NCBI GenBank assembly: GCA_022823235.1
Contig: JAJDXO010000057.1
Coordinates: 23,963 to 87,962 of the forward strand
Source of the DNA: Rhodospirillales bacterium
GTDB taxonomy: Bacteria > Pseudomonadota > Alphaproteobacteria > Rhodospirillales > UBA2165
Direction of reading: 5' to 3'
DNA: 64,000 nucleotides
Below, piece after piece: positions 19,747-40,675 of this stretch. A model generated the notes under the pieces. That model saw only the letters and a program-made list of their open reading frames with translations. It had not been told where the DNA came from and searched no databases. Each line of letters begins with the position of its first letter. Within the stretch, counting starts at the first letter, position 1. A program made the translations under genes and the position numbers.

Positions 19747-20958
19747 ATGACCATTGACTACGAGGCGGAGTGGAAAGCCGTCGAGACGCTTCCCTGGTGC
19801 GCCCTGGTCACCACGGGCCGAACCGGCAGCGATTTCTTCCAAAGCCTTTTCGACGGACACCCGGAGGTCATCGTCTTCAACGGACAACAGAACTTTCACC
19901 TGTTCTGGCAAAACGCCAAGTCGGCGGGCGCGGGTGCCCTGCCGGCGCCGGAGGACATCATCGATGAATTTATCGGCGTCTATATCCACCGGTTCAAATC
20001 CCGGTACGATTTGGTTGAACGCAAAAACGAACTGGGGGAGCAGCGGAATGAGTGCATCCAACTCGACCCTCAGATCTTTCGCCAACATGCCCTGGGTCTT
20101 CTCGGAAACAGGCCGGCAACGTCCAGAAACGTCTGCCTGGCGGTCAATGCAGGCTTCGCCCTGACGCTTGGCCAGCGTCTGACGGGCAAGTCCGTGTTTT
20201 TCCACCACGTCCACCGGATCGGCGGACTGGACATGTTCCTCGAGGATTTCCCTGAATCCAAGGTCATTTGCATGATCCGGGAGTTTGGCTCCAACTATGT
20301 TTCGGGGGTGGAGAATTGGCGCCGGTACAACCCCGAGACGGATTCACCCGCCTATCCGATCTATGTCCTGTGGCGCGCCGTCGATGAAGCCCGGCCGCTG
20401 CGCCACCTTCCGCCGGATCGGGTTCGCGCGTTGCGTCTCGAGGATTTGGGAAACACCGAAATCTTGAAGCGGATTTGCCGATGGCTTGAGGTCGACTACG
20501 ACCCGTGCCTGACACAATCAACCTGGAACGGCCTGCGTTGGTGGGGTGACAAAATATCCCGTTCATCGCCGCCGGGCCATCAGCCGGGCTTCGCGGCCTC
20601 GATGGTCCAAAATAATTGGCGTGACCGGATCGGAAGAACCGAGCGCTTTGTCCTGGATGGAATTCTGGGACCCTATCTCAACCATTATGGCTACCCGCGC
20701 GAACACCGCCACGGCGCGATTGGCATCTGTCTGTTGATATTCGCGGTCCTGGCGCCGACCCGTTATGAACGCCGGTTTTTCAATCCGAAATTCATGGCGG
20801 GCAATTTTCTGCGCGGCAGGCTCAAGGCGGCGGCAAGCGGGCCCTACCATTATCTGCGCCGCGTTTCACTCCACTACAAATGGCTCGTCAGGCTGAAAAC
20901 CCGCGACCACGTCCTGTTGCCGCGTTTCCCGGTGGCCGAACCTCCGAACCCGCACTAG
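19747..20958 (+). CDS. Sulfotransferase family protein
   Basis: TTGRTGSDFFQSLFDGHP (5'-PSB-like), KVICMIR, LRLEDL motifs. Confidence 0.7.
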   Translation: MTIDYEAEWKAVETLPWCALVTTGRTGSDFFQSLFDGHPEVIVFNGQQNFHLFWQNAKSAGAGALPAPEDIIDEFIGVYIHRFKSRYDLVERKNELGEQRNECIQLDPQIFRQHALGLLGNRPATSRNVCLAVNAGFALTLGQRLTGKSVFFHHVHRIGGLDMFLEDFPESKVICMIREFGSNYVSGVENWRRYNPETDSPAYPIYVLWRAVDEARPLRHLPPDRVRALRLEDLGNTEILKRICRWLEVDYDPCLTQSTWNGLRWWGDKISRSSPPGHQPGFAASMVQNNWRDRIGRTERFVLDGILGPYLNHYGYPREHRHGAIGICLLIFAVLAPTRYERRFFNPKFMAGNFLRGRLKAAASGPYHYLRRVSLHYKWLVRLKTRDHVLLPRFPVAEPPNPH

Positions 20959-20980
20959 GCCCGGTTCCTGTTCCATTGAT

Positions 20981-22798
20981 ATGATCGCCTCGGCAAGAAA
21001 ACTCCACGATCTGATAGCCCCGGCTTCGCGCTCCAGGATCCTGTTCCTGATATTGCCAATGCTCATTGCAGCCGTTCTCGAAATGGCAAGCATCGGAATG
21101 GTGCTTCCCGTGGTTCACGTCTTGTTTGCGGGCGATACCGGTACCGGCCCCCTGGCAATGATCGCCCGGTTCGTGCCGGACGCGTTGACGAAGAATTCCG
21201 GGGTCTGGCTGATCGCGCTCTTTTCGGTGCTCTTCATCGTTAAGAACGTGATGTATTTCGGCCTCACGCATCTCGTCAATCTGGTGGTTCACCTGGCGGC
21301 CGCGGATTTCATTCTCCGCATGCATCGCGTCTATACCCGGCGCTCGCTGCTGTTCCATACCCGAAACAACAGCGCGGTACTCCTTCGCAATCTCGTCAGC
21401 GGCGCCGGCCAATCCTTTGAATGCATACGCATCTTCCTGCTGATGGTTCTCGAATTCCTATTGATGGCCGTGGCGACAGCGCTGTTGCTGTTCGTGGAGC
21501 CGCTGGTGACGCTGCAGCTGGCCGCCCTGATGCTGGTTGCCGGCCTGGTATTCTACAAGCTGGCCGCCCCGGCATTTCGTCGGTGGGGAGAGAGGACGAT
21601 GGAGCTTGAGAGCGACCTCATAAAATGGGTTAACCAGTCCTTCGACGGCATTCGCGACGTCAAGATTTTGAACGCCCATGAATACGTCAACCGACACGTT
21701 GGAGACTTCGCCCGGGAGCGTGGAATTTTTTTGAGTTGGGCAAGCTCGTCACTCCAGATACCCCGGCTGCTCATCGAGACGGTCGTGATAATCGGGTTCG
21801 TCCTGCTGGCAAGCTGGCTGGTGTCGGCGAGGGGCTCGACGGCCGAGGCAATGGGCCTTCTGGGATTGTTCAGCATGGCCGCCTTGCGGATCATGCCGTC
21901 GGTCAACCGCATCTTGTCGAGCGCGGCGAATCTGAAGAACCGCGCGGCCTACATCGATGCGGTCCACCACGATTACACGATGGTGGAGGAAGCCGGCGCG
22001 AACGAGGAACGGCGAACCGGCCGGGTCGGGCTCCAGCTTAACGGCGGGATCGAACTCGACGGCGTGAGCTTTCATTACGACGGAACGGAAACACCGGCCG
22101 TCGCGGACATCAATCTGACAATTCCCAAGGGGTTCAAGGTCGGCATTGTCGGTCCCTCCGGAGCAGGCAAGACAACATTGGTCGATCTGTTTCTGGGGCT
22201 ACTCGCACCGCGGTCGGGCCGGCTACTGATCGACGGACATGACATTCGCGACAATCTTCGGGCATGGCAGGACCTGATCGGCTACGTGCCGCAGGAGCCG
22301 TTTTTGATTGATGACACCCTGCGCAGGAACATTGCCTTCGGCTTGAACGACGAGGAAATCGACGAGAATCGACTGGAGATCGTCGTTGCTTCGACCGACC
22401 TCGGCGGGGTCGTCGAGGATTTGGAGCATGGGCTCGATTCGGCGTTGGGCGAGAAAGGCGTGCGCATATCCGGCGGCCAGCGACAGAGAGTGGCGGTGGC
22501 GCGCGCCCTCTACCGCAACCCGGAGGTTCTGGTCTTCGACGAGCCGACATCCGCGCTCGACAATCAAAGCGAAGCCGAGTTCGTAAACAACATCGAACGG
22601 CAAAGCGAGGCCGGAAAAACGATTTTGGTGGTCGCCCACCGGCTCAGCACCGTACGCCGCTGCGACCTGATCATATTCCTGAAGAACGGACGGATCGCCG
22701 GCCAGGGCAACCTGAACGAGCTTATGCAAAACAACGACGAGTTCCGCGAGTTGGTCGAATTGGGCAACATCCTGCGGCCGGTCGACCAGGATGGATGA
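20981..22798 (+). CDS. ABC transporter fused permease/ATPase (PglK/HepA-like glycan flippase)
   Basis: About six TM helices, then GPSGAGKTT, ISGGQRQR, LVFDEPTSALD, VAHRLST. Confidence 0.9.
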   Translation: MIASARKLHDLIAPASRSRILFLILPMLIAAVLEMASIGMVLPVVHVLFAGDTGTGPLAMIARFVPDALTKNSGVWLIALFSVLFIVKNVMYFGLTHLVNLVVHLAAADFILRMHRVYTRRSLLFHTRNNSAVLLRNLVSGAGQSFECIRIFLLMVLEFLLMAVATALLLFVEPLVTLQLAALMLVAGLVFYKLAAPAFRRWGERTMELESDLIKWVNQSFDGIRDVKILNAHEYVNRHVGDFARERGIFLSWASSSLQIPRLLIETVVIIGFVLLASWLVSARGSTAEAMGLLGLFSMAALRIMPSVNRILSSAANLKNRAAYIDAVHHDYTMVEEAGANEERRTGRVGLQLNGGIELDGVSFHYDGTETPAVADINLTIPKGFKVGIVGPSGAGKTTLVDLFLGLLAPRSGRLLIDGHDIRDNLRAWQDLIGYVPQEPFLIDDTLRRNIAFGLNDEEIDENRLEIVVASTDLGGVVEDLEHGLDSALGEKGVRISGGQRQRVAVARALYRNPEVLVFDEPTSALDNQSEAEFVNNIERQSEAGKTILVVAHRLSTVRRCDLIIFLKNGRIAGQGNLNELMQNNDEFRELVELGNILRPVDQDG

Positions 22799-22821
22799 AT
22801 TCCTGCTGCTGACTTGATGAT

Positions 22822-24495
22822 TTGTCGGGAAAATTGGTGCCGGTCTCTCTAAGACCTTCGAGAATTGCGCAGCTGTCTGGCGACCGAATGGTCTGGCTTG
22901 CGATCACCGGATCGTCGTGCCGGCTGCCGCCGAACCGGATGCTGCCTGACGTCGGGCGGCAACTCGAAGAGTCCTACGATGCGGTCTGCGGGCAGTGGAT
23001 GTCGCTTGGCCGCAGGTTCTCCAAGGAACGCCAGGGTTGGTTGGCCGATATGCCCACGGCCGCCGTCGATATTTGTGATTTCGGCCTCATGCTGGCATGG
23101 AGCAACCTCGTCTCGAGACTCGCCCGGCAGGAGCACGAGGTGCTCGTCGTATGTGACGACCCTTGGATGTTCCGGCATCTGGAAACCTTGCCGGGCGTGA
23201 CGGCGCATGGCGGCGTTGCATTATGGCGGCACCGACTGAAGCATCTCCTGCGCGGCTACGCTTCCCGCTTCAAAGTCTCGCTAAGGGTAGCGCTGGCTGC
23301 GCTGCTTTACCGGCCGCAGCGGCGGCGGCATGAGACCGACCCCGGGGCCCCCGCGGTCGTCGCTTACGGTCACCCGTCCAGCCGGGGAGATGGATATGAT
23401 GCATATTTCGGCGATCTCATACTCCGCAATCCCCAAATCCTGCGAATACTGCACACGGACCTCATCGGCGGTCGTATACGGACCCTGACGGCGGAGCGGC
23501 ATTCGGCGAGTTTTCACGCCTGGGGAAATCCGCTCTTTGCGCTCACCCTGTCATTCGTTCGATGGAAGCCCGTGCCCGGCGACGGCGACGAACCATATGC
23601 CTGGCTCATCCGCCGGGCGGCCGAAACCGAGAACGGAGGCGGCGCTCTCGCCATGACCCGATGGCAGAATCACTGTCATGAGAATTGGCTCAAGAGCGTA
23701 CGCCCGCGCTGCGTGGTTTGGCCCTGGGAGAATCACCCATGGGAACGGGATTTCGTTCGGCGGTGCGGCAGCCTTGGCGTCGAAACCCTGGGATACCAGC
23801 ACACGGTTGTCGGCCGGCACCGGCTCAACTTCAACCCAACAACGAATTTCGACGGCGAGCGCAGTCTGCCGGACCGAATAATCTGCAACGGCCCGGCATA
23901 TTTGGAACAGCTGATCCAATTCGGTCTCGATCCGGCCCGGCTGATCATCGGGGGCGCATTTCGATTTCCCTCGGTCGGTCACAACCACTACGACCCCGAA
24001 GGCCCGGTTTACGTGGCGCTTTCCCACGTCACCGGCATCGCGTCACAAATGTTGGCCGCCATCGAATCCCTGCCGGCAAAATGCGCCAAGTTCGTGGTCA
24101 AGAGCCATCCCATGTATCCCGTGGATTTCGACGAGAGGGAAAGCATTCGTCGTACGCAAGCAACAATTCCGGAATTTCGAGGAATGCGGGCGGTACTGTA
24201 CAGTACCGGGGCAACCGGACTCGAGGGGGCGATGGTCGGGGTGCCAACCTGGCGGTTTCTTCCGGCTGACCGGATCGCTCCCGACATTCTGCCAGACAAT
24301 GTGAGGTTGCCGTCGATAACCAAGAGTGATATCGAAGCCATCCTTGATCCAGAGCCTGAATTCGCGCCGGTGGACTGGAATCAGGTCATGGCGCCGGTGG
24401 ATATGGCGGCTTGGGTACGCGAGTTGGGCCTGCCCGCCGTCCGGCAAGATGTCCGCGGGCCGGCCCACCCTGACGGCTCCGGCGGAACTCCCTGA
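22822..24495 (+). CDS. Hypothetical surface-polysaccharide protein, possible GT-B transferase
   Basis: 557-aa ORF; WENHPWE, GYQHT, PDRIICNG, VKSHP, TGLEG..VGVP resemble GT-B ulosonate/CDP-polyol transferase motifs. Start uncertain. Confidence 0.55.
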   Translation: MSGKLVPVSLRPSRIAQLSGDRMVWLAITGSSCRLPPNRMLPDVGRQLEESYDAVCGQWMSLGRRFSKERQGWLADMPTAAVDICDFGLMLAWSNLVSRLARQEHEVLVVCDDPWMFRHLETLPGVTAHGGVALWRHRLKHLLRGYASRFKVSLRVALAALLYRPQRRRHETDPGAPAVVAYGHPSSRGDGYDAYFGDLILRNPQILRILHTDLIGGRIRTLTAERHSASFHAWGNPLFALTLSFVRWKPVPGDGDEPYAWLIRRAAETENGGGALAMTRWQNHCHENWLKSVRPRCVVWPWENHPWERDFVRRCGSLGVETLGYQHTVVGRHRLNFNPTTNFDGERSLPDRIICNGPAYLEQLIQFGLDPARLIIGGAFRFPSVGHNHYDPEGPVYVALSHVTGIASQMLAAIESLPAKCAKFVVKSHPMYPVDFDERESIRRTQATIPEFRGMRAVLYSTGATGLEGAMVGVPTWRFLPADRIAPDILPDNVRLPSITKSDIEAILDPEPEFAPVDWNQVMAPVDMAAWVRELGLPAVRQDVRGPAHPDGSGGTP

Positions 24496-24525
24496 TGACG
24501 CGGCGAATTGGTGGAATTACAGCCG

Positions 24526-25731
24526 ATGAATAAATTTGTCTGCAAACATCCCTGGACCCACTTCGAGGTCAACAATCCGAACGGTGACGTCACCATGTGC
24601 TGCAACAACGACATGGTCATGGGGAACGTCAATGAAGGCTCAATTGCGGAAATATGGAATAGCGAGAAATTTCAGGACGCCCGAAAGCGGATGCGCGAGG
24701 ATGGCGCTCATTCCATGTGCCCGCACACCTGCCCGGTGCTTCAAGGCGGCAAGAAGTACGAAGACATAGACTGGTTCGACGGCCTGAGCGACGACGGCGA
24801 GCCCCATCAAAACGCCGTCACCAACGAACAGGAGTTCGACGATGGCCGCGTGAAATTGGAATCGACACCGCGCTGGCTGCGATTCACCTACTCATACGCG
24901 TGCAACCTCGATTGTTATCACTGCTATCAAAGAGAGGATGCCAAGATCCGGGCCAAGCTGCCGGATTCGTTCATGGCCGAACTGGAGGCGTTCGCCAAAC
25001 GAAGCCAGGTCGTGTTTCCCTTTGGCGGCGAGCCATTCTTTTTCGGTCCGGTCGTATCGTTCCTGGAGAATTACAATACCAACCTCGAAACCCGCTTCAT
25101 GTTCATAACGAACGCGACGCTGCTCACCGATCGGATTTACGAGATTCTGGAGAAGTTGACCATCTCCGGCTTTGCCGTGTCCCTGGATGCAGCCTCCGAA
25201 CTCAGCTTCGATTTACTCCGGGTCCGCGGCCGCAACGCGACGTGGCAAGCGGTGATGGAGAACCTCGGGCGGTTGAGTGAGTTGAAGCAGCGAAAAGGCT
25301 TCAGCCTTACCCTCAGCATGACCGTCAATCGCGTCAACTGCCATGAAATTGAGGATTTCGTCGACCTGGCGTTGGAGCATGACTGCGAGCCGCTCCTTCT
25401 CCTGGTCTCGAATCCCTTTCAAACCGTCGACTTCCAAAAATCCTACCTGGTTTTCGACGACAAACAGCTGCAGGACATGTTTGCGCAAATCGAGCGCTCA
25501 TTGGTCAAAGTCCGGCAGGCCCGCTTGGAAGATGCGGAGGTTCACCTGAAGCTCTTGCGTGCCAATCTCCGAAATCATCAACGCACGGAAAACAATCCTG
25601 CCCTCTTCCGGGCCAAGTCAACCGCAAGAGCCGCCTACCATCAGCTGCCGGAGTTTCTGCAACTGCCGATCCGCCGCGTCGTACAGGGAGCGCGCGACAA
25701 GCGGCTCGCAGAGGGTCTCCTCGATGACTAA
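24526..25731 (+). CDS. Radical SAM protein with N-terminal SPASM/twitch-like domain
   Basis: CKHPW...NGDVTMCC...GNV...IAEIWN precedes CNLDCYHC, GGEPF, ITNATL, VSLDA. Confidence 0.85.
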   Translation: MNKFVCKHPWTHFEVNNPNGDVTMCCNNDMVMGNVNEGSIAEIWNSEKFQDARKRMREDGAHSMCPHTCPVLQGGKKYEDIDWFDGLSDDGEPHQNAVTNEQEFDDGRVKLESTPRWLRFTYSYACNLDCYHCYQREDAKIRAKLPDSFMAELEAFAKRSQVVFPFGGEPFFFGPVVSFLENYNTNLETRFMFITNATLLTDRIYEILEKLTISGFAVSLDAASELSFDLLRVRGRNATWQAVMENLGRLSELKQRKGFSLTLSMTVNRVNCHEIEDFVDLALEHDCEPLLLLVSNPFQTVDFQKSYLVFDDKQLQDMFAQIERSLVKVRQARLEDAEVHLKLLRANLRNHQRTENNPALFRAKSTARAAYHQLPEFLQLPIRRVVQGARDKRLAEGLLDD

Positions 25732-25784
25732 CCCGCGTCCCGGCGGCTGATTTGTGTACCTGTACATAGGACAACCCCCCGCCG

Positions 25785-26540
25785 ATGAATGAGCTGAAAT
25801 CAAGAGTCCGGAGCGGTGAGATTTGCGTTGGCGGCTGGCTCACCACCGCCTCCGGGCAAGTCGCCGAAGCGCTGGCAAGTTGCGGTTTCGACTGGCTTGC
25901 CGTGGACATGGAACATGGCGCGGCGGGGTTGACCGAGGTCGAATCCGCGTTCGTCGCCTGTGAGCGTCACGGAGTCGCTCCCCTTGTGCGGCTGCCGTCC
26001 GGAGACCCGATTTTGGCACGCCGGGTCCTGGACCTGGGCGCGCACGGTGTGATTGTTCCCCAGGTGGAAAATGCCGGCGAGCTAAACGATTTCATCGGTC
26101 AGCTGTTGTATCCCCCAAAGGGGCGTCGCGGCGTCGCCCTGGGCCGCTTCAATGCATGGGGGGATGAATTTGCCGAGTACTTTGCTTTCGAACCGCTGAT
26201 TGCCGCCCAGATCGAGTCCCCCGCAGGCGTCGAACAATCGCATGAGATCGCCGCATTGGAAGCCGTCGATGTTCTGTTCCTTGGACCCTATGATCTCTCC
26301 GCAGGCCTCGGCGCGCCCGGTGACTTTGCTTCGGACCGCTATGCCGCCGCCGTCGAGAGCGTGCGCTCGGCCTGCCAACCGCAGAACACCGCATTGGGCT
26401 TGCATCAGGTCACCCCTGATGGGGAAGAACTTCGGCAACGCATCGCCGAGGGCTTCCGTTTTCTCGCATACGGCACCGACATGATCGCCCTTCGACATGC
26501 GTTGCGCGAGGTACGGCAACTCAGGAATGAACGCCGTTAA
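25785..26540 (+). CDS. HpcH/HpaI class II pyruvate aldolase
   Basis: GFDWLAVDMEHG, LDLGAHGVIVP, YPPKGRRG, QIES, FLGPYDLS. Confidence 0.9.
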   Translation: MNELKSRVRSGEICVGGWLTTASGQVAEALASCGFDWLAVDMEHGAAGLTEVESAFVACERHGVAPLVRLPSGDPILARRVLDLGAHGVIVPQVENAGELNDFIGQLLYPPKGRRGVALGRFNAWGDEFAEYFAFEPLIAAQIESPAGVEQSHEIAALEAVDVLFLGPYDLSAGLGAPGDFASDRYAAAVESVRSACQPQNTALGLHQVTPDGEELRQRIAEGFRFLAYGTDMIALRHALREVRQLRNERR

Positions 26541-27304
26541 TGCGGATATTCGGGGTGATTCCCGCCCGGATGGGCTCTTCCCGATTTCCCGGGAAGCCAT
26601 TGGCGCCGCTCATGGCCATGCCGGTTGTGTGTCATGTCTTTCATCGAAGCCGGATGTTCGGTGACTTCGAACGGCTTGTCGTTGCAACCTGCGACCGGGA
26701 AATCGAAGACGCCGCCATCAATTGTGGCGCGGAATCGGTCACCACGTCCGACCGCCACGAACGCGCCACGGATCGTGTCGCCGAGGCGATCGAGGTGCTC
26801 GGCCTTCGGCCCGCTCCGGACGATCTGATCGTTATGGTGCAGGGTGACGAAGTATTTGTGTCGCCTGAAATGATCGGGAATGTCGTCGCGGCATACAAAC
26901 CAACCGACAATGTTGCGGTCGTCAACCTGGCGTCTCGTCTGTCCCGTCCGGAAGATTTTGCGGATGCCAATACAGTGAAAGTCGCTATCGCCCCGGACGG
27001 CCGGGCCCTGTACTTCTCGAGATCGCCGATCCCCTCCCAATCCCGCGAATCCAGCGCCCCGATCTATCAACAAACCGGGCTGATGGCATTCCCGGCGAAA
27101 TTTCTGAGCGAATTCGCCAAGCTTCCTTCAACGCCGTTGGAGCAGATTGAATCGGTCGACCTTCTCCGGCTTCTTGAAAACGGGCATAGGGTTCAGATGG
27201 TGAAGACCGAGATCGAAACGATCGGCATAGACACGCCGGAAGACCTGGCGCGCGCGGAAACAATGATGCGCTACGATCCGTTGGTTTCGGAATATATTAC
27301 CTGA
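26540..27304 (+). CDS. kdsB: CMP-Kdo synthetase-like cytidylyltransferase (copy 2)
   Basis: VIPARMGSSRFPGKPL, HERATDRVAEA, VQGDE, LYFSRSPIP, LEQIESVDLLR, IDTPEDL. Confidence 0.85.
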   Translation: MRIFGVIPARMGSSRFPGKPLAPLMAMPVVCHVFHRSRMFGDFERLVVATCDREIEDAAINCGAESVTTSDRHERATDRVAEAIEVLGLRPAPDDLIVMVQGDEVFVSPEMIGNVVAAYKPTDNVAVVNLASRLSRPEDFADANTVKVAIAPDGRALYFSRSPIPSQSRESSAPIYQQTGLMAFPAKFLSEFAKLPSTPLEQIESVDLLRLLENGHRVQMVKTEIETIGIDTPEDLARAETMMRYDPLVSEYIT

Positions 27305-27321
27305 ATAATTGACCCGGCCTC

Positions 27322-28197
27322 ATGCTGGCTGCTGCCATCAATCTCGCCAAATTCCTGGGTGTCGATACACGCGCCGCCTATCACGGCATATCGCGCGCCA
27401 GTCTCGATGCCGCGGTCAAGGAGCAAGAACTCGATCTGCTTCGGGATCGATTGCGGGAGATCGTGCCGGATCTCAGCCAACAATATACCGGCGGACAGGA
27501 TGCGGAGGAGTACCGGCGCTACTGGGAAATCAAGCTCCGCAGCCTGCATGCGTTTCAGGTCCATGGAATCCTGGACGCTCTGGACACGATCGGCGGCGGA
27601 CCCCTTGATATCGTGGACATAGGTGATTCGTCGGGAAATCACGGCAAATATGTCAAGGCTCTCTCGGGGGACAGCCGCGTTGCAAGCTTTACCAGTGTAA
27701 ACGTCGACCCGGCGGCCGTAGAGAAGATCAAGCGGCAAGGCGGCGACGCCTACCTGGCCAGGGCCGAAGAGTTCGACTATTCCGCCGTGCCGTCCGACCT
27801 GTATCTGTGCCTTGAGACGTTGGAGCATCTGACGGACCCGACGCGGTTTCTTCACAAATTGGCGGAGGAAGGAGTGGCGGATCATTTGCTCATAACCGTT
27901 CCTTACCGCCGCCAGAGCCGTTTCGGCGGCAGCCTGCTGGACCAGATCGATACCGATCCGGCTGCGGCCTTAACTCCCGAAAGCACTCATATATTCGAAC
28001 TTTCCCCAACGGATTGGCGGCGGCTAACCAGGTTTGCCGGCTACCGCACGGTTTTCGAACGCATTTATCTGCAGTACCCGCGCCGCGGGTTGATGCGGGT
28101 AACGGCGCCGGTGTGGAGAAAATTGGATTTCGAGGGTTTTCTTATGCTTCTGCTCGCCCGCGACCTCCGCGTCGCGAAACGATACACCGGGTGGTAG
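27322..28197 (+). CDS. Methyltransferase-fold protein
   Basis: IVDIGDSSG (degenerate motif I), ETLEHL.DP, LITVP. Confidence 0.6.
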   Translation: MLAAAINLAKFLGVDTRAAYHGISRASLDAAVKEQELDLLRDRLREIVPDLSQQYTGGQDAEEYRRYWEIKLRSLHAFQVHGILDALDTIGGGPLDIVDIGDSSGNHGKYVKALSGDSRVASFTSVNVDPAAVEKIKRQGGDAYLARAEEFDYSAVPSDLYLCLETLEHLTDPTRFLHKLAEEGVADHLLITVPYRRQSRFGGSLLDQIDTDPAAALTPESTHIFELSPTDWRRLTRFAGYRTVFERIYLQYPRRGLMRVTAPVWRKLDFEGFLMLLLARDLRVAKRYTGW

Positions 28198-28204
28198 GAG
28201 GCGA

Positions 28205-29248
28205 ATGACCAAACTCCGGATCGGCATTGCGGGCTTCGGCGTGGTCGGCAAAAGGCGGCGCACGTTCATAGACGCTCATCCCGATCTGACGACCGTCGCC
28301 GTCTGCGACCGCACGTTCGGGCGCGAGCAGACGGCGGAGGACGGCCTCGATTGCTTTTCGGACTACCGGCGGCTGCTGGACAAGGAACTCGATGCCCTGT
28401 TCATCTGCATGACGAACGACATGGCGGCCGAAGTGACCATTGCCGGCCTGGAACGCGGCCTGAACGTGTTCTGCGAAAAACCGCCGGGCCGCGACCTTGA
28501 GGATATCGCAAGGGTAATTGCCGTCGAGAGAAACCGCCCCGGGCAAAAATTGATGTACGGCTTCAATCACCGCCACCACGATTCGGTGCGCGATGCCCTC
28601 GAACTCGTACGGTCCAATGACCTCGGCAGGATCATCAACCTGCGGGGCGTCTACGGAAAATCGAAAATTATCAATTTTGAAACCGATTGGCGCACGCAGA
28701 GATCGATCGCGGGCGGCGGCATTTTGCTCGACCAGGGCATTCACATGGTCGACTTGCTGCGGTTGTTTGCCGGGGAGTTCATGGACGTCAAAAGCTTCGT
28801 TTCAAACGGTCACTGGGGCCACGATGTCGAGGACAACGCCTATGCGCTGTTGCGCACGGGTGACGGCGTGGTCGCCATGCTGCACTCCTCGGCCACCCAA
28901 TGGCAGCACAGATTCAGCCTGGAGATCACTCTGGAGCACGGCGCGATCATCCTGTCCGGCCTCCTGACAAGTTCCAAGAGCTACGGCGCGGAAACCCTGA
29001 CCGTCTTCAACAAGACCCCGGCCGATCAAGGGGACCCCGAAGGCATAACCACGGCCTACGATACCGACCCGTCCTGGGCGGCGGAAATATCCGACTTTGC
29101 CGATGCCGTGCTGAATGATGCGCCGATGAAGTTCGGAACGTCGCACGACGCCTGGGAAACCATGAAACTGGTGAGCCGAATCTACTGTGCGGACCCCGAG
29201 TGGAAACAACGCTGGAATTTGACCGACGATGCAACCCTGCCAGGCTGA
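28205..29248 (+). CDS. Gfo/Idh/MocA oxidoreductase
   Basis: IGIAGFGVVG, VFCEKP, GFNHR, GGGILLDQGIHMVD. Confidence 0.9.
   Translation: MTKLRIGIAGFGVVGKRRRTFIDAHPDLTTVAVCDRTFGREQTAEDGLDCFSDYRRLLDKELDALFICMTNDMAAEVTIAGLERGLNVFCEKPPGRDLEDIARVIAVERNRPGQKLMYGFNHRHHDSVRDALELVRSNDLGRIINLRGVYGKSKIINFETDWRTQRSIAGGGILLDQGIHMVDLLRLFAGEFMDVKSFVSNGHWGHDVEDNAYALLRTGDGVVAMLHSSATQWQHRFSLEITLEHGAIILSGLLTSSKSYGAETLTVFNKTPADQGDPEGITTAYDTDPSWAAEISDFADAVLNDAPMKFGTSHDAWETMKLVSRIYCADPEWKQRWNLTDDATLPG
29144..29248 (+). repeat. 105-bp direct repeat, copy 1 (3' end of the Gfo gene)
   Basis: Aligns without gaps to 30116-30220 with about 12 mismatches (counted by hand). Confidence 0.92.
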
Positions 29249-29270
29249 CCCAGGGTCCGGACTCGATTAG

Positions 29271-30137
29271 ATGCCAACAACCAAGAAGGACGTCCAGCGG
29301 TTCTGGGGGCGCTTCACGACTCCTTCAACGCGGGGGCCGGGGACGGGCCCGGCCGCGACGATTTGCTCCAGGGCCTCGACGACCTGGGAGATGCCCCTGC
29401 GGGCGCTCGAGGGTCTGCGGGTTCTGGAAGTGGGCTCGGGCGCCGGCGGCCATTCCGCCCTGTTCGCCCGCCGCGGGGCGCGGGTGACGGCGGTGGATTT
29501 GACGGCGGCGCGGTCGCGCGCCACCCGGGACAAGTTTCGGCTTCTGGGCGAGTCGGCCTCGGGCTGCCTGGCGCTGCAGGCGGACGGGGAGCGGCTGCCT
29601 TTCGCGGAAGACAGCTTCGACATCGTCTATTCCAACGGCGTCCTGCACCACACGCCGGACACGGAAGCCGCCGTCGCCGAAGTCCTCCGCGTCCTCAAGC
29701 CCGGGGGAAGGGCCGTGGTCATGCTCTACTGCAAGTCCTCCTGGCACTACTGGATCAACATGTGGCTCTGCGTCGGCGTGCTCCAGGGCAAGGCGTTCCG
29801 GGATCGCCACTGGCTGGGCAAGGCGACCGAGTGGGGCGGCGGCCACGCCCAGACGGTCGAGAACCCCGTCACCCGCTGCTACACCGCCGCCGGCCTCCGC
29901 CGGCTGTTCGCGGGCTTCGCCGGGCTGAGCCTGCGCAAGGGCGAGTTCTACTTCTACCTGGTGCCGAAGCTCGGCCGGTTGTACCGGCGCTGGCAGGTGC
30001 GCCGCTACGGCACCCACCCGGGGGGCGTGCTGGTCTATGGGGAGCCGTGGCCGATCCAGTCGCCCCTGGAGCGCTTTCTCGGCCCGGTCATGGGCTGGGC
30101 CTGGTTCATCACCGCCACGAAGCCTGGGAAACCATGA
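29271..30137 (+). CDS. Class I SAM methyltransferase; 5' end possibly degraded
   Basis: VLEVGSGAG, VDLT, ADGERLPF..SFDIVYSNGVLHH, RVLKPGG; the stop lies inside repeat copy 2. Confidence 0.75.
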   Translation: MPTTKKDVQRFWGRFTTPSTRGPGTGPAATICSRASTTWEMPLRALEGLRVLEVGSGAGGHSALFARRGARVTAVDLTAARSRATRDKFRLLGESASGCLALQADGERLPFAEDSFDIVYSNGVLHHTPDTEAAVAEVLRVLKPGGRAVVMLYCKSSWHYWINMWLCVGVLQGKAFRDRHWLGKATEWGGGHAQTVENPVTRCYTAAGLRRLFAGFAGLSLRKGEFYFYLVPKLGRLYRRWQVRRYGTHPGGVLVYGEPWPIQSPLERFLGPVMGWAWFITATKPGKP

Positions 30138-30220
30138 AACTGGTGAGCCGTATCTACCGTGCGGACCCCGAATGGAAACGGCGCTGGAACCTGACCGGCC
30201 ATGCGACCTTGCCAGGCTGA
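30116..30220 (+). repeat. 105-bp direct repeat, copy 2 (orphan Gfo 3' end)
   Basis: Encodes HEAWETMKLVSRIYRADPEWKRRWNLTGHATLPG*, versus HDAWETMKLVSRIYCADPEWKQRWNLTDDATLPG* in copy 1. Confidence 0.92.
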
Positions 30221-30221
30221 T

Positions 30222-32138
30222 CTATTTCGACAAGCGGCGTTCCAGTTCGGCGATAACGGACGGCCCATCATAGACCGCCGTGTTGACCCCGGCGAAAACC
30301 GGTTCGAGAGAATTGATGACGGGCTTCAGGTACGATCCAAATCGCACCTTTGAATAATCGACCTCGCGCGTCTCGGTGGCCGCATTCGGATTCTGCGACC
30401 GGGTCAGTCTCACGGTCGAGACCAGGAAATACCGGAACTTTAGCTGCTTGGCGCGCCGGACGTACTCCTCGATGGATATCGCCGGCGGACTGGACTGCCG
30501 CAGCCACCAATCGCCTTCATCGTCGAAATAGGTCCTGACGACGTTTTGATGCGGGCAGTAGAACGAATGAAAATCCACCGTTGCCGAGTAATAGTATTCG
30601 CCGGGACGCAGATTTTGCTTGAGAAAGCCGCAGGTCAGGAAGTGGTTCAGCCTCATCGTGGGCGTATTGGATTGATATTCGGAAGGGCTCATGATCCCCA
30701 GGGCGACAGGCAGCCGGATCGCCGCGTAGGCGCCGATGAACATTCCCTGAACCGCCACGTAAACGAGAGCAACGGCCAGAAAAGCCGGCAACAGGACTTT
30801 CCGCCCCCGCATCAGGCCCCAAGCCCACGTCATGCCGTCGGCCGCCATCCCGGCGACGAACGGGAGCACCGGAATGAGAAATCGCACCTGTTGGGAAAAC
30901 AGGAAAAACCAAAGCACGAAGTAAATTGCGGCGACAATTCCGGGGATCGCCCACCGCCGGCGCCCTTCCCGGTCAAGCAGGATCAAAGGGAACAGCGCGA
31001 GCAGATACGGTGCGCCGAGCATCATGCCGTCGAAATAATGCATGGGGAATACGGACATCATCCAAGGCGCCAGCAGGAGGTCGAGCACGCTCCTGCCCGT
31101 GCCAAACGAATCCGCAACGCCCGAAAGTACATCCAGACCGCCGGGATTGAAGAGCGGGACGTACAGGGGATAGACGGGATTTCCGGTGATCACGGCGTTG
31201 CGCGCCAGGAACGGGAGCAGAACCGCAACGCCTCCGGCCGTCACGGCGGCGACGTCCAGCCAGCGCTTCCGCCGGCCCAATTCAACGAGAACGATGGGCG
31301 CGAAGGCGAGGGCAATCCCGAGACCTTGGTACTTGGTGAGAATCGACCCGCCGAGCACCACGCCGAACAAAATCGACAGCCGCGCCTCCGGCGATTTCCG
31401 CAGGGCCAGATAGACCAGCATGGAGGAGACAGCGAACGCCGCGACGACCGGGTCCGTTTCCACTGTCGCCATTTGCCAAATGACGGCGCGAATACTCAGG
31501 AAGAATATTCCGGCGATGAGCGACGTGGCGGCGCTTGCCCCCAGCCGGCGCGCCACGAGGCCCGCGCCGACGGCAGCGGCGAGATCGAAAAAACCGTGAA
31601 TAATCTGCGCGGCGCCAGGGCCTGCCAAGACCAGGGAATATCGGGAAATATTGGTGCCGAAATTGGGAAAAAAGGATTGCGGCAAACGGTGTGCCCACGG
31701 GATATCGACAAATCCGCGCGCGACATCGATCGCCGGAATCGTCAGATGGTAGACCATGCTGTCGTAGTTGCTCGGCGGCGCAAGCCCTTGCAGCAAGGTG
31801 AAAACGACAACGACGCCGGCAACGGCGAGCAGGCCGAGCTGAAACGGTTCGCCGGCCGGGAAGCAGGATTTGACGATGAGACGCCAATTGATACGCCGCA
31901 GGCCCGGCACGGCGGCGGCCAACGCGACAATGGCCAGACCCCCCATGGACGGCAGGTCCAGACGCCATGAGGAAACCGCGAAAGTCCCAAAATAGAAGAG
32001 GATCGCTCCGGCGATAAACGAGAGCAGCAGATTTTCGTGGTCCGTCAACCTGCGCTCCCTGTCGAACCAGGCGAGCGCGGCGGCTCCAAGTCCGATCGCG
32101 GTCGCCAGATAGACCGCTGCGACGGCAAGATCAATCAT
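30222..32138 (-). CDS. Polytopic membrane protein, probable GT-C (ArnT/PMT-like) glycosyltransferase
   Basis: More than 12 TM segments; D..VYH loop motif, KYQG, ITGNPVYP, RFLIP. Confidence 0.65.
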   Translation of the reverse strand: MIDLAVAAVYLATAIGLGAAALAWFDRERRLTDHENLLLSFIAGAILFYFGTFAVSSWRLDLPSMGGLAIVALAAAVPGLRRINWRLIVKSCFPAGEPFQLGLLAVAGVVVVFTLLQGLAPPSNYDSMVYHLTIPAIDVARGFVDIPWAHRLPQSFFPNFGTNISRYSLVLAGPGAAQIIHGFFDLAAAVGAGLVARRLGASAATSLIAGIFFLSIRAVIWQMATVETDPVVAAFAVSSMLVYLALRKSPEARLSILFGVVLGGSILTKYQGLGIALAFAPIVLVELGRRKRWLDVAAVTAGGVAVLLPFLARNAVITGNPVYPLYVPLFNPGGLDVLSGVADSFGTGRSVLDLLLAPWMMSVFPMHYFDGMMLGAPYLLALFPLILLDREGRRRWAIPGIVAAIYFVLWFFLFSQQVRFLIPVLPFVAGMAADGMTWAWGLMRGRKVLLPAFLAVALVYVAVQGMFIGAYAAIRLPVALGIMSPSEYQSNTPTMRLNHFLTCGFLKQNLRPGEYYYSATVDFHSFYCPHQNVVRTYFDDEGDWWLRQSSPPAISIEEYVRRAKQLKFRYFLVSTVRLTRSQNPNAATETREVDYSKVRFGSYLKPVINSLEPVFAGVNTAVYDGPSVIAELERRLSK

Positions 32139-32141
32139 CGA

Positions 32142-32276
32142 TCAGAAGAGAGACGGAAACAGGAAGGAACCGAAGCGGGCGAACTGGGTTTCGAAGTAAC
32201 CCAGATTGACGAACAGATAGGAAGACAGGACGGCGGTCATCCAGGCAAGCACGGCCAAGGCTTTTGCGCTATCCAA
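32142..32276 (-). CDS. 44-aa single-pass membrane protein (not in the ORF track)
   Basis: GGAGG RBS 9 nt before TTG; MDSAKALAVLAWMTAVLSSYLFVNLGYFETQFARFGSFLFPSLF; the stop sits 3 nt before the GT-C ATG. Confidence 0.55.
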   Translation of the reverse strand: MDSAKALAVLAWMTAVLSSYLFVNLGYFETQFARFGSFLFPSLF

Positions 32277-32430
32277 GTTTTCCGTCCTCCCGGAGACCGC
32301 GACGTTCAGGCTGCCGCATGATAACGATTGCCCCGCTCGAAGTTAAGCCCACCGGCTCGGCCCAATTGGAATTATTCACCGTCATCCGGCGGATCGCCGC
32401 GGTGAGTCGAAACAACATTAGCCACTCGGG

Positions 32431-34095
32431 ATGTTGAGTTCCGCAACCGGGACCATCGTCCGGCGGGCGCGCCGGATCGCGGCCGACCCGGTGCTGCGGC
32501 GATGGCTGGTCAGGCGGGCTTTGCGGCTTACGCCGGACGCCCCAAGCTACACGCCCCACCAACCGCCCTATCTGGCGGACCGCCTCCCGATTCGCACAGA
32601 GCCTCCCGACCCCTCACCGCCATTCCCGGAACTGTCGCCGGCCGTCCCGGCGGCGTCATTGAAGCTGTGTCTGGCAAGCCGGTCCATCGAGCTGGAACCC
32701 GGCGACGAGAAACAACTTTTCGAACGCCGATTTTCCGATCTGGAAGATCATCTGGCTTTGCACCGTTTCTCCTGGCTGCCCTTGGCCGAGAGCATGGACC
32801 CCGCCTGGGTGAGCGCGATATTCGGCGTCTGGCGGGAGTTCATCCGGCGTTCGAGCGATCCTTGGATCTGGCATCCCTATACGGCCGCGGAGCGCGCCGT
32901 GAATTTACTGGCGTTCGGCCGGGCCCAAGGCCTCCCCGCCCCCCTGGCCGACACCCTGGACCTGCTCGCGGATCATGCCCAGCGAATCGGTAACGCGCTC
33001 GAGTATTTCGGCCAACACAACACATCAAACCACTTGGCGAACAACGGGCGCGGACTGTATCTGCTGGGTCTTGAACTCGGTCTCGCCGAGGCCCGGGAGG
33101 CCGGCTGCATCATTCTCATGAAGGAAGCGGAACGCTTGTTCATGCCGTCGGGGGTCCTGCGGGAAGGATCCAGCCACTACCATCTGCTTCTGGCCCGCAA
33201 CTATTTTCAGGTCGCCAACGCCGCCGCGGCCCGAAACCGCCCGGAGGCGGCCGGCCTTTCGGCGACCGCCGAGAGATCGCTGCAAGCCGCCCGGGCGCTC
33301 GTTCTTCCGGGCGGGTTGCCGTTGATCGGTGACATTTCGCCCGATTGTCCGCCATCGGGCCTGATGGCGGCGCTCCCCGACCGGCCGCCCGCACCGCCGG
33401 ACATGTTGGACCGAATGGCCTCGGACGGCTGGCTCCGGTTTGCCGGCGGCTCGTGGACCGGCCTCTGGTACGTGCCGCCCGACGGCTGGCCACCCATGCC
33501 CGGACACGGCCACAACGACTGCGGATCGTTCGAGTTGCATTTCGGCGACGAGCCAATATTCGTCGACCCGGGCCGGGGGCGATATGGGGAATCCGGAGAC
33601 GCCGCCCATTACCGGTCGGGCGCCTCGCACAATGGCATAAGCATCGACGGCATCGATGCCTACCCCGCCAACAAGCCCTATTATTCGGAAGAATTTCGCC
33701 GGACCGTTTGCGGCCGGCCGCCGGTGCTTTCCCGTACGGCCAACAGGGTCAGCCTGCGGTTCGAAGGATTCAGGCGGCGGCGCGGTCTGGGCGCCGTGGA
33801 GCGGCATTGGCGGTTTGCCGGACCCGATGTCGTGATCGCCGATTCCATTGAAGGTTCGGGCACACACAAAATCACCCGCCGAATCGCCACGCCGTTGGCG
33901 GCGGAACTCGCCGGCAATGGGGTCAGGTTGTCATCTTCCGCCGGCAATTGGTCCGTCGGTGCGCCGGGCGACGTGTCTCTCAGGCCCATCACGAGATGGC
34001 ACGCCTATGGCCACGGGACGCCGATTTCCCAAATTGTAATCGAGGAGACGGCGGCGCTTCCGTGGCGGGGCGAGATACGGGTCCGGGCCACATGA
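32431..34095 (+). CDS. Heparinase II/III family protein
   Basis: NHLANN, REGSSHYH, GHGHND..SF, DPG..Y, SHN motifs. Confidence 0.8.
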   Translation: MLSSATGTIVRRARRIAADPVLRRWLVRRALRLTPDAPSYTPHQPPYLADRLPIRTEPPDPSPPFPELSPAVPAASLKLCLASRSIELEPGDEKQLFERRFSDLEDHLALHRFSWLPLAESMDPAWVSAIFGVWREFIRRSSDPWIWHPYTAAERAVNLLAFGRAQGLPAPLADTLDLLADHAQRIGNALEYFGQHNTSNHLANNGRGLYLLGLELGLAEAREAGCIILMKEAERLFMPSGVLREGSSHYHLLLARNYFQVANAAAARNRPEAAGLSATAERSLQAARALVLPGGLPLIGDISPDCPPSGLMAALPDRPPAPPDMLDRMASDGWLRFAGGSWTGLWYVPPDGWPPMPGHGHNDCGSFELHFGDEPIFVDPGRGRYGESGDAAHYRSGASHNGISIDGIDAYPANKPYYSEEFRRTVCGRPPVLSRTANRVSLRFEGFRRRRGLGAVERHWRFAGPDVVIADSIEGSGTHKITRRIATPLAAELAGNGVRLSSSAGNWSVGAPGDVSLRPITRWHAYGHGTPISQIVIEETAALPWRGEIRVRAT

Positions 34096-37181: not shown

Positions 37182-38440
37182 TCAAGCCGGATTCCGTGAC
37201 TTCAAAACACCATAGACGGGGGACCTGCCGGCTTTGCGGCAGCCGGAATCTGGAACGGGTTCTCTCGCTTACCCCAACCCCGCCCGCAAACGCGTTCGTT
37301 TCCCGCGATGAACTGAGCGCCGAGCAGCACTGCTACCCGCTCGACTTGCATTTTTGCAATGCCTGCGGGCACGTGCAGCTGCTGGATGTCGTCGACCCCG
37401 GGGAACTGTTTTCGAACTACGTCTATGTTTCGGGCACGTCGCCGGTTTTCGTGGAGCACTTTGAAGAATACGCGATGACCGTCACGAGCCAATTTGGCCC
37501 CGTCGACGACCGCCTCGTGGTGGAAATAGGTTCAAATGACGGAACCTTGCTCAGGTTTTTTCGCGACCGGGGGGCGGAGATACTGGGCATCGATCCGGCG
37601 AGGCGGATTGCCGCGCAAGCCAACGCAAACGGCGTCAAGACACTCGCCGAATTCTTCACCCCCGGCCTCGCCCGGGAAATCCGCCGGGAATATGGTGCGG
37701 CAAAAGTCGTCGCGGCCAATAACGTCCTCGCCCACGCGGACGATCTCGCAGCCATCATCGACGGCGTCGCAACGCTGCTGGCGGATGATGGCGTGCTGGT
37801 ATTCGAAGTGTCGTATCTGGCCGATGTCTATCAAAACGTCCTGTTCGACACCATCTACCACGAGCATCTGGACTATCATTCCGTCAAACCGCTCGCGCCG
37901 TTCTTTGATGCCCGCGGTCTGCGCCTGACCCGTGTCGAACGGGTGGCGCCCCATGGCGGCAGCATCCGCTGCTATGTGCAGCCCAAGGCCGCGGCGCCCG
38001 CCATCCATGCGTCGGTCCGCTGGTGCATAACGGCCGAAGAAGATCTTGGTTTGGACCGGGCCGAGACCTTCCGGCAATTCGGAGAGCGGATCACCGGGCT
38101 CGGATCGCGGCTCCGGTCCGAGCTCAAATCCATAAGCGCGGCGGGCAAGACCGTCGCCGCCTACGGCGCCCCGGCCAAGGCGACGACGTTGATGTATCAC
38201 TTTCAACTGAACGCCGCCCAAATCGACTTCATCGTCGACGACAGCGAGTGGAAGCAGGGCTTGTACTCGCCCGGATTGCATATTCCGGTCGTGGCAAGCA
38301 GTGAGATTTACCGGCAGCGTCCGGACTACCTTCTTGTGCTGGCCTGGAACTTCGCCGATCCGATCATAGCCAAGCATCAGGCCTTCCGCGACGCGGGGGG
38401 CACCTTTATCGTGCCGTTGCCGGAAATGAGGTTTATTTGA
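37178..38440 (+). CDS. NDP-sugar C-methyltransferase
   Basis: CRLC...C..C zinc domain, EIGSNDG, FDTIYHEH, HGGSIR, YGAPAKA, LAWNF. Confidence 0.88.
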   Translation: MIKPDSVTSKHHRRGTCRLCGSRNLERVLSLTPTPPANAFVSRDELSAEQHCYPLDLHFCNACGHVQLLDVVDPGELFSNYVYVSGTSPVFVEHFEEYAMTVTSQFGPVDDRLVVEIGSNDGTLLRFFRDRGAEILGIDPARRIAAQANANGVKTLAEFFTPGLAREIRREYGAAKVVAANNVLAHADDLAAIIDGVATLLADDGVLVFEVSYLADVYQNVLFDTIYHEHLDYHSVKPLAPFFDARGLRLTRVERVAPHGGSIRCYVQPKAAAPAIHASVRWCITAEEDLGLDRAETFRQFGERITGLGSRLRSELKSISAAGKTVAAYGAPAKATTLMYHFQLNAAQIDFIVDDSEWKQGLYSPGLHIPVVASSEIYRQRPDYLLVLAWNFADPIIAKHQAFRDAGGTFIVPLPEMRFI

Positions 38441-40647: not shown

Positions 40648-40675
40648 TCCGAGAGGTTGGAAGGCTGAAACGAGC

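Follow-up and report, generated by a model that had tools for sequence, protein, structure and literature searches.

How did a single methyltransferase gene come to be flanked on both sides by copies of its upstream neighbour's 3′ end? The question is raised by a surface-glycan locus in a 64,000-nucleotide (nt) stretch of contig JAJDXO010000057.1 from a Rhodospirillales bacterium (assembly GCA_022823235.1); the whole stretch analysed is called the window, and its coordinates are used throughout. The assembly, referred to as G000, is a metagenome bin of an uncultured sponge symbiont (3,775,704 bases, 60 contigs, completeness 98.79, contamination 1.4), and the stretch occurs in sponge-metagenome runs. 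The genes concerned are a Gfo/Idh/MocA oxidoreductase open reading frame (ORF) at 28205–29248 (Gfo), a methyltransferase ORF at 29271–30137 (MT) and a PMT/ArnT-like gene at 30222–32138 (PMT). Six other species of the same genus (G001–G006) were searched by protein comparison for MT and Gfo, and regions fetched from G002 (L027) and G003 (L028) were compared with the window by BLAST. The evidence leans towards the arrangement being the scar of an out-of-register, microhomology-mediated recombination between filled and empty versions of the glycan locus. Its components lie in the following order.

28205–29248, plus strand: Gfo, a complete Gfo/Idh/MocA oxidoreductase gene of 347 amino acids (aa) (PF22725, 2.7e-24; PF01408, 7e-17; PF02894, 7.3e-12).
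29144–29248, plus strand: copy 1 of the repeat, the working Gfo 3′ end (last 34 codons and TGA).
29249–29253, plus strand: CCCAG, a decayed form of TCTAG in a four-way alignment.
29254–29270, plus strand: a solo 17-nt terminal inverted repeat, GGTCCGGACTCGATTAG, of a MITE-like family (MITE, a miniature transposable element with inverted repeats); the match is exact (17/17).
29271–30137, plus strand: MT, a class I S-adenosylmethionine (SAM)-dependent methyltransferase ORF, 288 aa (PF08241, 3.8e-24; PF13649, 5.2e-20).
30116–30125, plus strand: the junction microhomology CACGAAGCCT (MT end CACGAAGCC in G002 and G003; Gfo sequence CACGACGCCT).
30116–30220, plus strand: copy 2 of the repeat, a non-functional Gfo-end remnant contiguous with native downstream DNA.
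30222–32138, minus strand: PMT, a convergent gene for a PMT/ArnT-like membrane glycosyltransferase (PF02366, 1.5e-05, 25.1 bits; cut-off 22.7).

The two copies form a gapless direct repeat of 105 nt (29144–29248 and 30116–30220; 89 % identical by repeat search and pairwise alignment), spaced by 972 nt or 324 codons. A preliminary description of the locus had claimed a 105-bp duplication of the Gfo end (34 codons and the stop, about 12 mismatches, no gaps), and the repeat search and the alignment agree with it. No other direct repeat of at least 40 nt was detected in the 64-kb window (seed 12), and a search of the whole 3.78-Mb assembly returned these two places alone (E value of 4.6e-33 for the second copy). 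Protein similarity to Gfo at copy 2 is limited to residues 313–347. The longest identical run between the copies is 29 nt (29150–29178 in the alignment), with a weak likeness 5–8 nt beyond the stop (TGAcCcAG for copy 1, TGAtCtAt for copy 2). Twelve positions mismatch between the copies. One is the junction base, where the A at 30121 comes from MT and is no true mismatch; judged against G002 and G003, eight others are changes on the side of copy 2 and three on that of copy 1. At three more sites both G000 copies agree and differ from G002 and G003. Changes on the copy 2 side, counted by hand from the alignment in the Gfo frame, were five synonymous and three non-synonymous, too few for a test of selection. 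Since G002 and G003 are sisters, with 0.07 synonymous substitutions per synonymous site (dS) between them, the copy changes are not fully polarisable.

The right joint, at which MT passes into copy 2, lies in CACGA[A/C]GCCT, where 9/10 nt are common to the MT end of G002 and G003 and to Gfo, so that a short microhomology falls exactly at the novel joint (30116–30125). The G000 MT reads CACGAAGCC and continues across the joint with TGGGAAACCATGA, Gfo at 29144 reads CACGACGCCTGGGAAACC, and the first 9–10 nt of copy 2 (CACGAAGCCT) are also the 3′ end of MT in the congeners. All homologues from other genera (9/9) end 0–7 residues past the corresponding KP, five of them with KPD*. This indicates that the G000 MT is cut exactly at the natural end of its family. 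The last four codons and the stop are supplied by copy 2 in another frame; the TGA (30135–30137) lies 20 nt inside copy 2, and the earlier statement that MT takes its stop from the second copy is therefore correct. In G002 and G003, MT reads ...GCCACGAAGCC and is then extended by 60–61 proline-rich codons into the start of an ABC gene. The MT of these two genomes (L027 5617–5800; L028) lacks the usual family stop, reads through the intergenic region and terminates at an ATGA shared with the start of the ABC gene, so that this copy of MT is also altered at its 3′ end.

At the left joint, the 17-nt terminal repeat directly adjoins the MT ATG. The preliminary description had rightly placed MT between two Gfo-end copies but had overlooked this repeat. 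The Gfo stop of G002 and G003 precedes TCTAG, after which comes the end of the downstream DNA. This site stays unoccupied after copy 2 (TGATCTAT TTCGAC), and copy 1 reads TGACCCAG, then GGTCCGGACTCGATTAG, then the MT ATG. To judge from these sequences, copy 1 ends at a canonical element–target junction and copy 2 precedes an unoccupied target. A full-length element of the MITE family would be bounded by GGGTCYGKACTCGAT; the full copies seen are non-coding and 100–460 nt long, with inverted ends (...CTCAATCGAGTCCGGACC) and (Y)TAG and CTA(R) flanks, and a target duplication of either TA or CTAG fits the flanks seen. The 17 nt represent the whole inverted repeat of the family, identical to the terminal repeat of a multi-copy element and standing beside its constant target. 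The sequence ACTCGATTAG is present in 13 copies in G000, 12 of which carry GGTC...ACTCGATTAG and 10 of which (10/13) are preceded by TAG. The pattern GGTCYGKACTCGATTAG has 12 copies in G000, eight in G005, seven in G006, one in G003 and none in G001, G002 or G004, with none for a reversed control. Three terminal-repeat sites were found in the window at ≤3 mismatches against 0.22 expected; the two other sites resemble the repeat with three mismatches each (8314–8330, plus strand; 48696–48712, minus strand). No second (right) terminal repeat was detected near the cassette at ≤3 mismatches. As to an autonomous partner, only two DDE_Tnp_1 fragments were found, with ends unlike the repeat. These are near-identical 3′ parts of a DDE_Tnp_1 gene at the starts of two contigs (C46:1–520 and C9:1–520; L124, L125), and represent an insertion sequence at which the assembly broke.

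MT itself is not new to the locus. A close MT (84–86 % aa identity) and a close Gfo (95 % over residues 1–347 in G002 and 3–347 in G003) are present in 2/6 congeners, G002 and G003; in the other four, only distant methyltransferases were found (best E values of 3e-10 to 2.5e-9). MT of G002 and G003 (88–90 % nt identity) stands directly before a seven-gene block (block B), 8.3 kb upstream of Gfo. Its dS is 0.23 against G002 and 0.18 against G003, and 9/11 genes compared with G002 have a dS of 0.165–0.23, the exceptions being a radical SAM gene (0.58) and a heparinase-like gene (0.31). The ratio of non-synonymous to synonymous substitution (dN/dS) in the 245-codon core of MT is 0.29 against G002, 0.39 against G003 and 0.26 between these two. 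The intervening DNA is indeed GC-richer, as had been reported (0.69–0.72 in windows over 29250–30149 vs 0.55–0.64 either side). However, MT has a GC content of 0.70, 0.71 and 0.72 in G000, G002 and G003, with flanks of 0.57–0.60; an excess common to the three species predates their split and is no mark of this event. The other 49/51 MT loci with full flanks, all from other species, show no such GC excess (median difference over all 51, −0.013). The proposal that a new gene had been added to the locus is thus contradicted by G002 and G003, whose glycan locus also contains this gene, and acquisition cannot be read from composition when the GC excess and a flank-like dS (0.23 and 0.18 vs ~0.2) are common to the congeners. 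Comparative sequence evidence indicates that MT is an old, vertically inherited member of the locus, at another place than in G002 and G003.

We infer filled and empty parents, an order of events and a repair pathway as follows. The filled version would carry the Gfo stop and CTAG, followed by a MITE-like element end and MT; the empty version would resemble G002 and G003, with the convergent PMT-like gene adjoining the Gfo end. Joining would have fused the natural 3′ end of MT (CACGAAGCC(T)) to a near-identical sequence of the empty version, CACGACGCCT, which lies 105 nt upstream of the Gfo stop there. The recombinant would hold a complete Gfo (copy 1), the MITE terminal repeat and MT with four new last codons and a borrowed stop, and would also retain the Gfo remnant (copy 2) and the untouched downstream gene. 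The parents could be sister chromosomes or strains exchanging DNA; strain exchange would imply homology-facilitated illegitimate recombination (HFIR), or break repair by synthesis with microhomology annealing. The dS is uniform across the joint and either flank may be the anchor; with the joint upstream of the anchor's end, 105 nt would be duplicated. The PMT stop (CTA on the plus strand) lies 1 nt beyond the copy 2 stop and overlaps the CTAG site. Surviving duplications may have been favoured, since Gfo and the PMT-like gene lie within 1 nt of each other and only joints inside the Gfo 3′ end would leave both genes whole. Loss of MT through the repeats would be possible, given the 29-nt identical run.

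Joining by recombination at a gene end had already been proposed, and the junction anatomy agrees with it. By BLAST, window 20950–29249 matches L027 5765–14065 at 91.7 %, and window 30119–35084 matches L027 13963–18949 at 89.8 %, the two matches overlapping at the single Gfo end of G002. Copy 2 and what follows it thus run collinear with G002 and G003, both of which have one Gfo end, its downstream DNA and an unoccupied CTAG. This supports out-of-register recombination, as do a joint placed in a 9/10-nt microhomology at the natural MT end and the long residence of MT in the locus.

Logan contigs of other sponge metagenomes were compared with the window (X1, X2 and X3 from one study, X5 from a second). 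A single 52.8-kb contig of X1 covers 27800–31200 without a difference; this run is a possible source of the bin and counts only as a second assembler. A 1041-nt contig of X2 aligns with 29150–29385 and 29387–30151, with 39 extra letters between, and runs from the copy 1 tail through the MITE end and MT to 26 Gfo-derived letters beyond the microhomology. Pieces from X3 cover 29156–29996, 30018–30126, 30097–30151 and 30128–31200. The X2 and X3 sequences are ~97 % identical to the window, and both new junctions are real in other samples. In X3 and X5, the MT end at 30126 also runs into other DNA (ATTGACGCG... / ATTGACGCGCC...) that encodes a family-like end, KPIDAPR*; X5 is ~96.6 % identical over 29719–30126. 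This third downstream sequence, ATTGACGCG, was not found in G000 or in the loci collected by then (exact 16-mer; 30-mer with ≤7 substitutions, 177 records). At least two haplotypes of the downstream side of MT therefore coexist in sponges, and the second haplotype in X3 and X5 is counted in favour of recombination between locus versions. No joint skipping ~972 nt was found in the X1, X2, X3 and X5 contigs, which carries no weight either way since contigs drop rare variants; breaks of the X2 and X3 contigs in the shared run are also compatible with a deleted allele and a circle. A metagenome scan with a 21-nt MT pattern gave three loci, two with distant MT homologues (75–77 % nt identity) and one without similarity, and no close strain. 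Among the runs listed as containing the stretch there is no RNA dataset.

MT itself is damaged in G000. A segment of the gene is out of frame, as seen in an alignment with G002 and G003 and in three-frame translation:

29305–29386, plus strand: out-of-frame MT segment.

It lies between two deletions, of 1 nt after 29304 and of 38 nt at 29386 (net −39), and the ORF stays open. Residues ~13–40 (~27 codons) are out of frame and 13 conserved residues (LEDMFRLRxHMAV) are lost. The conserved N-terminal region is thus not intact in G000; the core SAM-binding profiles are retained over residues 51–149 (PF08241, 85.6 bits, cut-off 21.2; PF13649, 72.4 bits, cut-off 27). No NCBIfam model reached its cut-off for MT, and no specific substrate family was assigned. 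This allele may be impaired. X2, X3 and X5 carry the intact form, with an extra G after 29304 and 37–39 extra letters at 29386. The arrangement predates the N-terminal damage.

Self-comparison of the genome by BLAST gave 105 direct-repeat pairs within 20 kb, of which 59 (hand count) are 50–600 nt long and 250–6000 nt apart. In 5/59 pairs, the stop of the first gene lies at or near the right end of both copies. Besides the repeat at Gfo, these are:

C26, 31118–31171 and 31462–31515: 54 nt, 96 % identical, end of an EamA gene (L035 2119–2516).
C58, 36858–36934 and 38040–38116: 77 nt, 100 % identical, 3′ end of a gene (L032 2359–3617).
C60, 26609–26794 and 28024–28209: 186 nt, 92 % identical, end of an arylsulfotransferase gene (L033 2610–4210).
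C55, 37462–37531 and 41164–41233: 70 nt, 86 % identical, end of a RadC gene (L034).

At C26, a member of the MITE family fills the 290 nt between the copies, with its left end intact after TAG and its last ~40 nt gone; the truncated element is joined at a GCCGGA microhomology to the second EamA-end copy. The site is single-copy and empty in 4/5 congeners (G002, G003, G005 and G006) and holds other DNA in G001. Both C26 copies share G000 bases that are absent from the congeners, which places the event within this lineage. At C58, the TAG of an amidohydrolase gene is followed by a MITE end in inverted orientation (44/52 nt match another copy), and the interior of the truncated element passes at G.CGGCGCG into a copy of the upstream gene end, the copies being 1.1 kb apart. 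This copy stands before a methyltransferase gene on the other strand, which is missing at this place in 4/5 congeners. The pattern common to C26 and C58, one intact MITE end with a microhomology joint to a gene-end copy, supports the recombination reading of the Gfo locus.

The C60 duplication is common to G005 and therefore old, and another interspersed repeat adjoins its first copy. The second copy stands after a 218-aa ORF without a Pfam match and before a sulfatase gene; at that stop codon, the remaining four congeners carry inserts that differ in length. At C55, the similarity runs beyond the stop with an indel, so that ~90 nt spanning the RadC stop are repeated 3.7 kb downstream (37462–41260). 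An interspersed repeat and a Rieske/VanA-like oxygenase gene lie between the C55 copies, with an Mrr-type endonuclease gene after them. Interspersed repeats adjoin the C55 copies and also lie ~85 nt past copy 2 of a shorter repeat at 61 kb in the window:

61018–61050, plus strand: first copy of a 33-nt repeat, near the 3′ end of a CoA-transferase gene (60380–61066).
61673–61705, plus strand: second copy, 97 % identical, followed by interspersed repeats and a GMC oxidoreductase gene.

This repeat ends 16 nt before the CoA-transferase stop, encloses a 155-aa ORF on the other strand and falls below the threshold of the genome scan. The claim that the Gfo locus shares the architecture of a 61-kb cassette is not sustained, the two being only loosely alike (a 33-nt repeat and an ORF on the other strand). 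All five congeners searched lose homology at 61050, and G001 resumes at ~63673; relative to G001, ~2.6 kb are extra here, holding the 155-aa ORF, interspersed repeats and the GMC oxidoreductase gene. Two other pairs were noted. At C2 (87919–88031 and 91812–91923; L036), the 5′ start of a gene (upstream sequence and ~25 codons, MSRRPLIAGNWKMNG...) is duplicated 3.9 kb upstream. At C40 (81708–81840 and 83891–84023; L037), a 133-nt repeat (93 % identical) surrounds 2.2 kb with two ORFs, and its second copy runs into what appears to be the 5′ part of a candidate tRNA gene. A recurrent route of gene-end duplication, as suggested in the preliminary description, is thus borne out as a pattern (five pairs, with a MITE link at Gfo, C26 and C58) but not as a means of gene acquisition: what recurs goes together with interspersed elements and joints at microhomology.

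Several observations weigh against out-of-register recombination at Gfo. The copies have 11 true differences in ~96 nt, equal to the divergence of G000 from its congeners, and therefore either the event is old or its parents were diverged, and the data fit both. Neither an empty-site allele of this species nor a full filled parent was seen, and in the X5 haplotype, represented by partial contigs only, Gfo and the MITE end are presumed to precede MT. The X2 and X3 contigs break in the shared run of 29–30 nt and do not phase the copies by themselves. Gfo stood directly upstream of MT in 0/80 MT loci of species representatives, some of them with short flanks; a Gfo orthologue was within the flanks in 16/80, the nearest on the same strand ~950 nt upstream. 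The sequence upstream of MT in G002 and G003 is unlike that of G000. The MITE repeat adjoins the MT ATG without microhomology, which neither recombination nor transposition explains. Finally, of the 13 left-end copies of the family, 11 had at least 2.5 kb of downstream sequence to search; upstream DNA is repeated on the far side in only 2/13, which shows that the element does not regularly produce such a duplication.

An unlikely alternative is transposition that was aberrant, one-ended or aborted. A transposase acting in trans on a MITE end beside MT at a different site would integrate this end at TA or CTAG after Gfo and drag the adjacent MT along, and on the far side a template switch at a microhomology 105 nt upstream in the target would duplicate the target. 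This would fit a left junction that is a canonical MITE-end/target junction beside a right one that is not, the presence of the whole inverted repeat, and the recurrence at three loci of one intact end with a microhomology joint to a gene-end copy. However, no donor site is known in which a MITE end precedes MT, and none exists in G002 or G003. A scan for MITE-bounded passenger genes (three mismatches) gave 714 sites, mostly chance; in this noisy scan well-matched end pairs were 100–460 nt apart, pairs more than 800 nt apart were poorly matched and no convincing passenger-gene element emerged. No matching transposase was found, the ends of the two DDE_Tnp_1 fragments being different, and to our knowledge target duplications of 54–113 nt are not a product of any transposase. 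An ordinary transposon target-site duplication was considered separately and rejected, with repeats of 105 nt (54 nt at C26) vs 2–15 bp and only one element end. One-ended transposition with variable adjacent DNA is documented for IS91/IS801, which resemble the Gfo locus in one fixed end, variable neighbouring DNA and a far boundary set by short similarity; the family differs in moving by rolling circle, without inverted repeats and without a long target duplication, and serves as an analogy only (PMC3189936). It is rather doubtful that the MITE family is an engine of single-gene shuffling in this sponge-symbiont genus, whose repeat would integrate beside stop codons at TA or CTAG. Failed integration of the second end, or excision repaired by template switching at microhomology, would then leave gene-end duplications of 50–115 nt and could trap or carry a whole gene, such as MT with its ATG against the repeat, and the three loci would represent one recurring route, driven by the element, by which gene order changes.

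A tandem duplication of MT, the ABC gene and onwards to Gfo (~9.4 kb), with loss of the first MT and of the second block save its last 105 nt, is improbable. Rotating the G002/G003 order (MT, block B) gives the G000 order (block B, MT), a deletion between CACGAAGCC and CACGACGCC would yield the observed right joint, and the place of the first MT is taken by a different block of 5.3 kb. Yet three events would be needed, copy 1 ends exactly at the element target site, and where a joint between Gfo-downstream and MT-upstream DNA is predicted, an exact MITE repeat was found and nothing like the MT upstream region of G002 and G003. The ~35 nt retained before the ABC gene are intergenic in the MT family and therefore no proof of a former MT there. 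Site-specific integration of a cassette carrying its own 3′ end of the target gene, with the copies as attL and attR, is very improbable: a working gene end beside the insert and a diverged native remnant beyond it are what it predicts, and the five synonymous and three non-synonymous differences on the copy 2 side suit it, but the 972-nt unit is one MT ORF, 21 ORFs scanned between 8.3 and 35 kb contain no integrase or recombinase domain, the copies share no identical core beyond the 29-nt run, MT is vertically inherited and the right joint lies at the end of MT itself with microhomology. That an assembler threaded two strain haplotypes through the shared 29-nt run is hardly credible, even in a 60-contig metagenome bin with several coexisting strains and with X2 and X3 Logan contigs that break inside this run; both novel junctions are present in X2 and X3 contigs, the single X1 contig spans the locus without a difference, and assemblers presumably do not make joins at a 10-nt microhomology. 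Equally remote is copy 2 as the tail of a larger, decayed Gfo paralogue overwritten by MT. A 285-aa ORF (29363–30220) is open in the Gfo frame, as would be expected of long frames at 70 % GC, but it has no Pfam match, its Gfo similarity is confined to residues 313–347, and up to the joint, the DNA on the left side of 30116 has its orthologue in the G002 and G003 MT.

The duplication itself is without demonstrated function. No terminator-like site was found in 29100–30300; three were found in 28000–32500 vs 5.2 expected, none of them in the copies. The fold z-scores for the four strands of the copies were −0.48, +0.52, −0.77 and −1.41. Copy 2 was accordingly rejected as a terminator or a structured RNA, and the 3′ boundary of the 972-nt unit is Gfo-derived sequence without significant structure (z-scores of −0.48 and +0.52).

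The surroundings are those of a surface-carbohydrate cluster, with two CMP-Kdo-synthetase-like cytidylyltransferases, an HpcH aldolase, a PglK/MsbA-like ABC exporter, glycosyltransferases and radical SAM enzymes. The blocks upstream of MT are:

15603–20949, plus strand: ~5.3 kb with genes for an epimerase, a pyruvate-kinase-barrel protein, a B12-radical SAM protein and a sulfotransferase-like protein (ORFs, Pfam).
20950–29249, plus strand: block B, seven genes ending in Gfo and collinear with G002 (Pfam, NCBIfam), namely ABC flippase-like, GT4-like, radical SAM/SPASM, HpcH aldolase, CMP-Kdo-synthetase-like cytidylyltransferase, methyltransferase-23-like and Gfo/Idh/MocA.

The 5.3-kb block stands where G002 has two other ORFs and MT, and L027 has no BLAST match to window 15603–20948. 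The cytidylyltransferase gene at 26540–27304 passes the cut-offs of NCBIfam models NF009905 and NF003952. Gfo carries an NAD-binding Rossmann domain (PF01408, 62.7 bits) and the C-terminal alpha/beta domain (PF22725, 86 bits), both above cut-off; PMT has 90 % aa identity to G002 and matches NF047510 (5.4e-17) below the cut-off of that model. The locus is a mosaic: G000, G002 and G003 differ in three of its blocks, and G003 has a diverged or replaced middle part and no PMT-like gene. In G003 (L028, reverse strand 14057–14095), ~33 nt of the PMT 3′ end are kept between the Gfo stop and the region upstream of a heparinase-like gene, a remnant at a module border. The radical SAM/SPASM gene at 24508–25731 has a dS of 0.58 against G002, with neighbours at ~0.2, and is probably a locally different allele derived from recombination.

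Duplication of a gene's 3′ end is known from attachment sites such as those of prophages e14 and phage 21 at icd of E. coli. There, the gene is completed by a diverged copy of its last 50–165 nt and the remnant lies beyond the insert, as at Gfo; these systems have an integrase, a defined core and a prophage, whereas no recombinase was found here and one resident gene is joined by microhomology at its coding end. Mosaic surface-polysaccharide loci carry gene remnants at module borders. The locus described here belongs to this class, its order and content varying among close relatives with remnants at borders, and no essential difference is apparent. HFIR was reportedly first described by de Vries and Wackernagel in 2002. 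According to PMC6382021, HFIR joints, like those at Gfo, are in register on one side and at a short GC-rich microhomology on the other (3–10 bp reported, 9/10 nt here), and foreign or out-of-register DNA is retained in both cases. In that account, HFIR is described from laboratory experiments on natural transformation, and recipient DNA is usually lost in the process; at Gfo, 105 nt are duplicated instead (PMC6382021). MITEs and their truncated derivatives, together with the CTAG targets of the IS5 type, offer a further parallel (PMC10379815): the family found here is short and non-coding, with inverted ends of ~17 nt, (Y)TA(G) flanks and 12 exact left-end motifs in G000. Unlike these, the Gfo locus keeps one terminal repeat only and a protein gene follows it. 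The rearrangement scar is real but fairly ordinary, of a known general kind and with unusually readable joints.

For the biology of this organism, the locus offers a base-resolution view of how gene order shifts within the variable surface-glycan cluster of a sponge symbiont that is uncultured. It illustrates that direct repeats around a GC-rich gene do not prove a recent import, and that a short gene-end repeat can be a remnant of recombination and not an attachment site. If an element-driven origin were true, it would amount to a route of single-gene relocation; a narrow literature search did not find such a route described, and no claim is made that none has been. The combination of one MITE end with a gene-end copy at three loci provides a testable lead on how small elements may promote local rearrangement.

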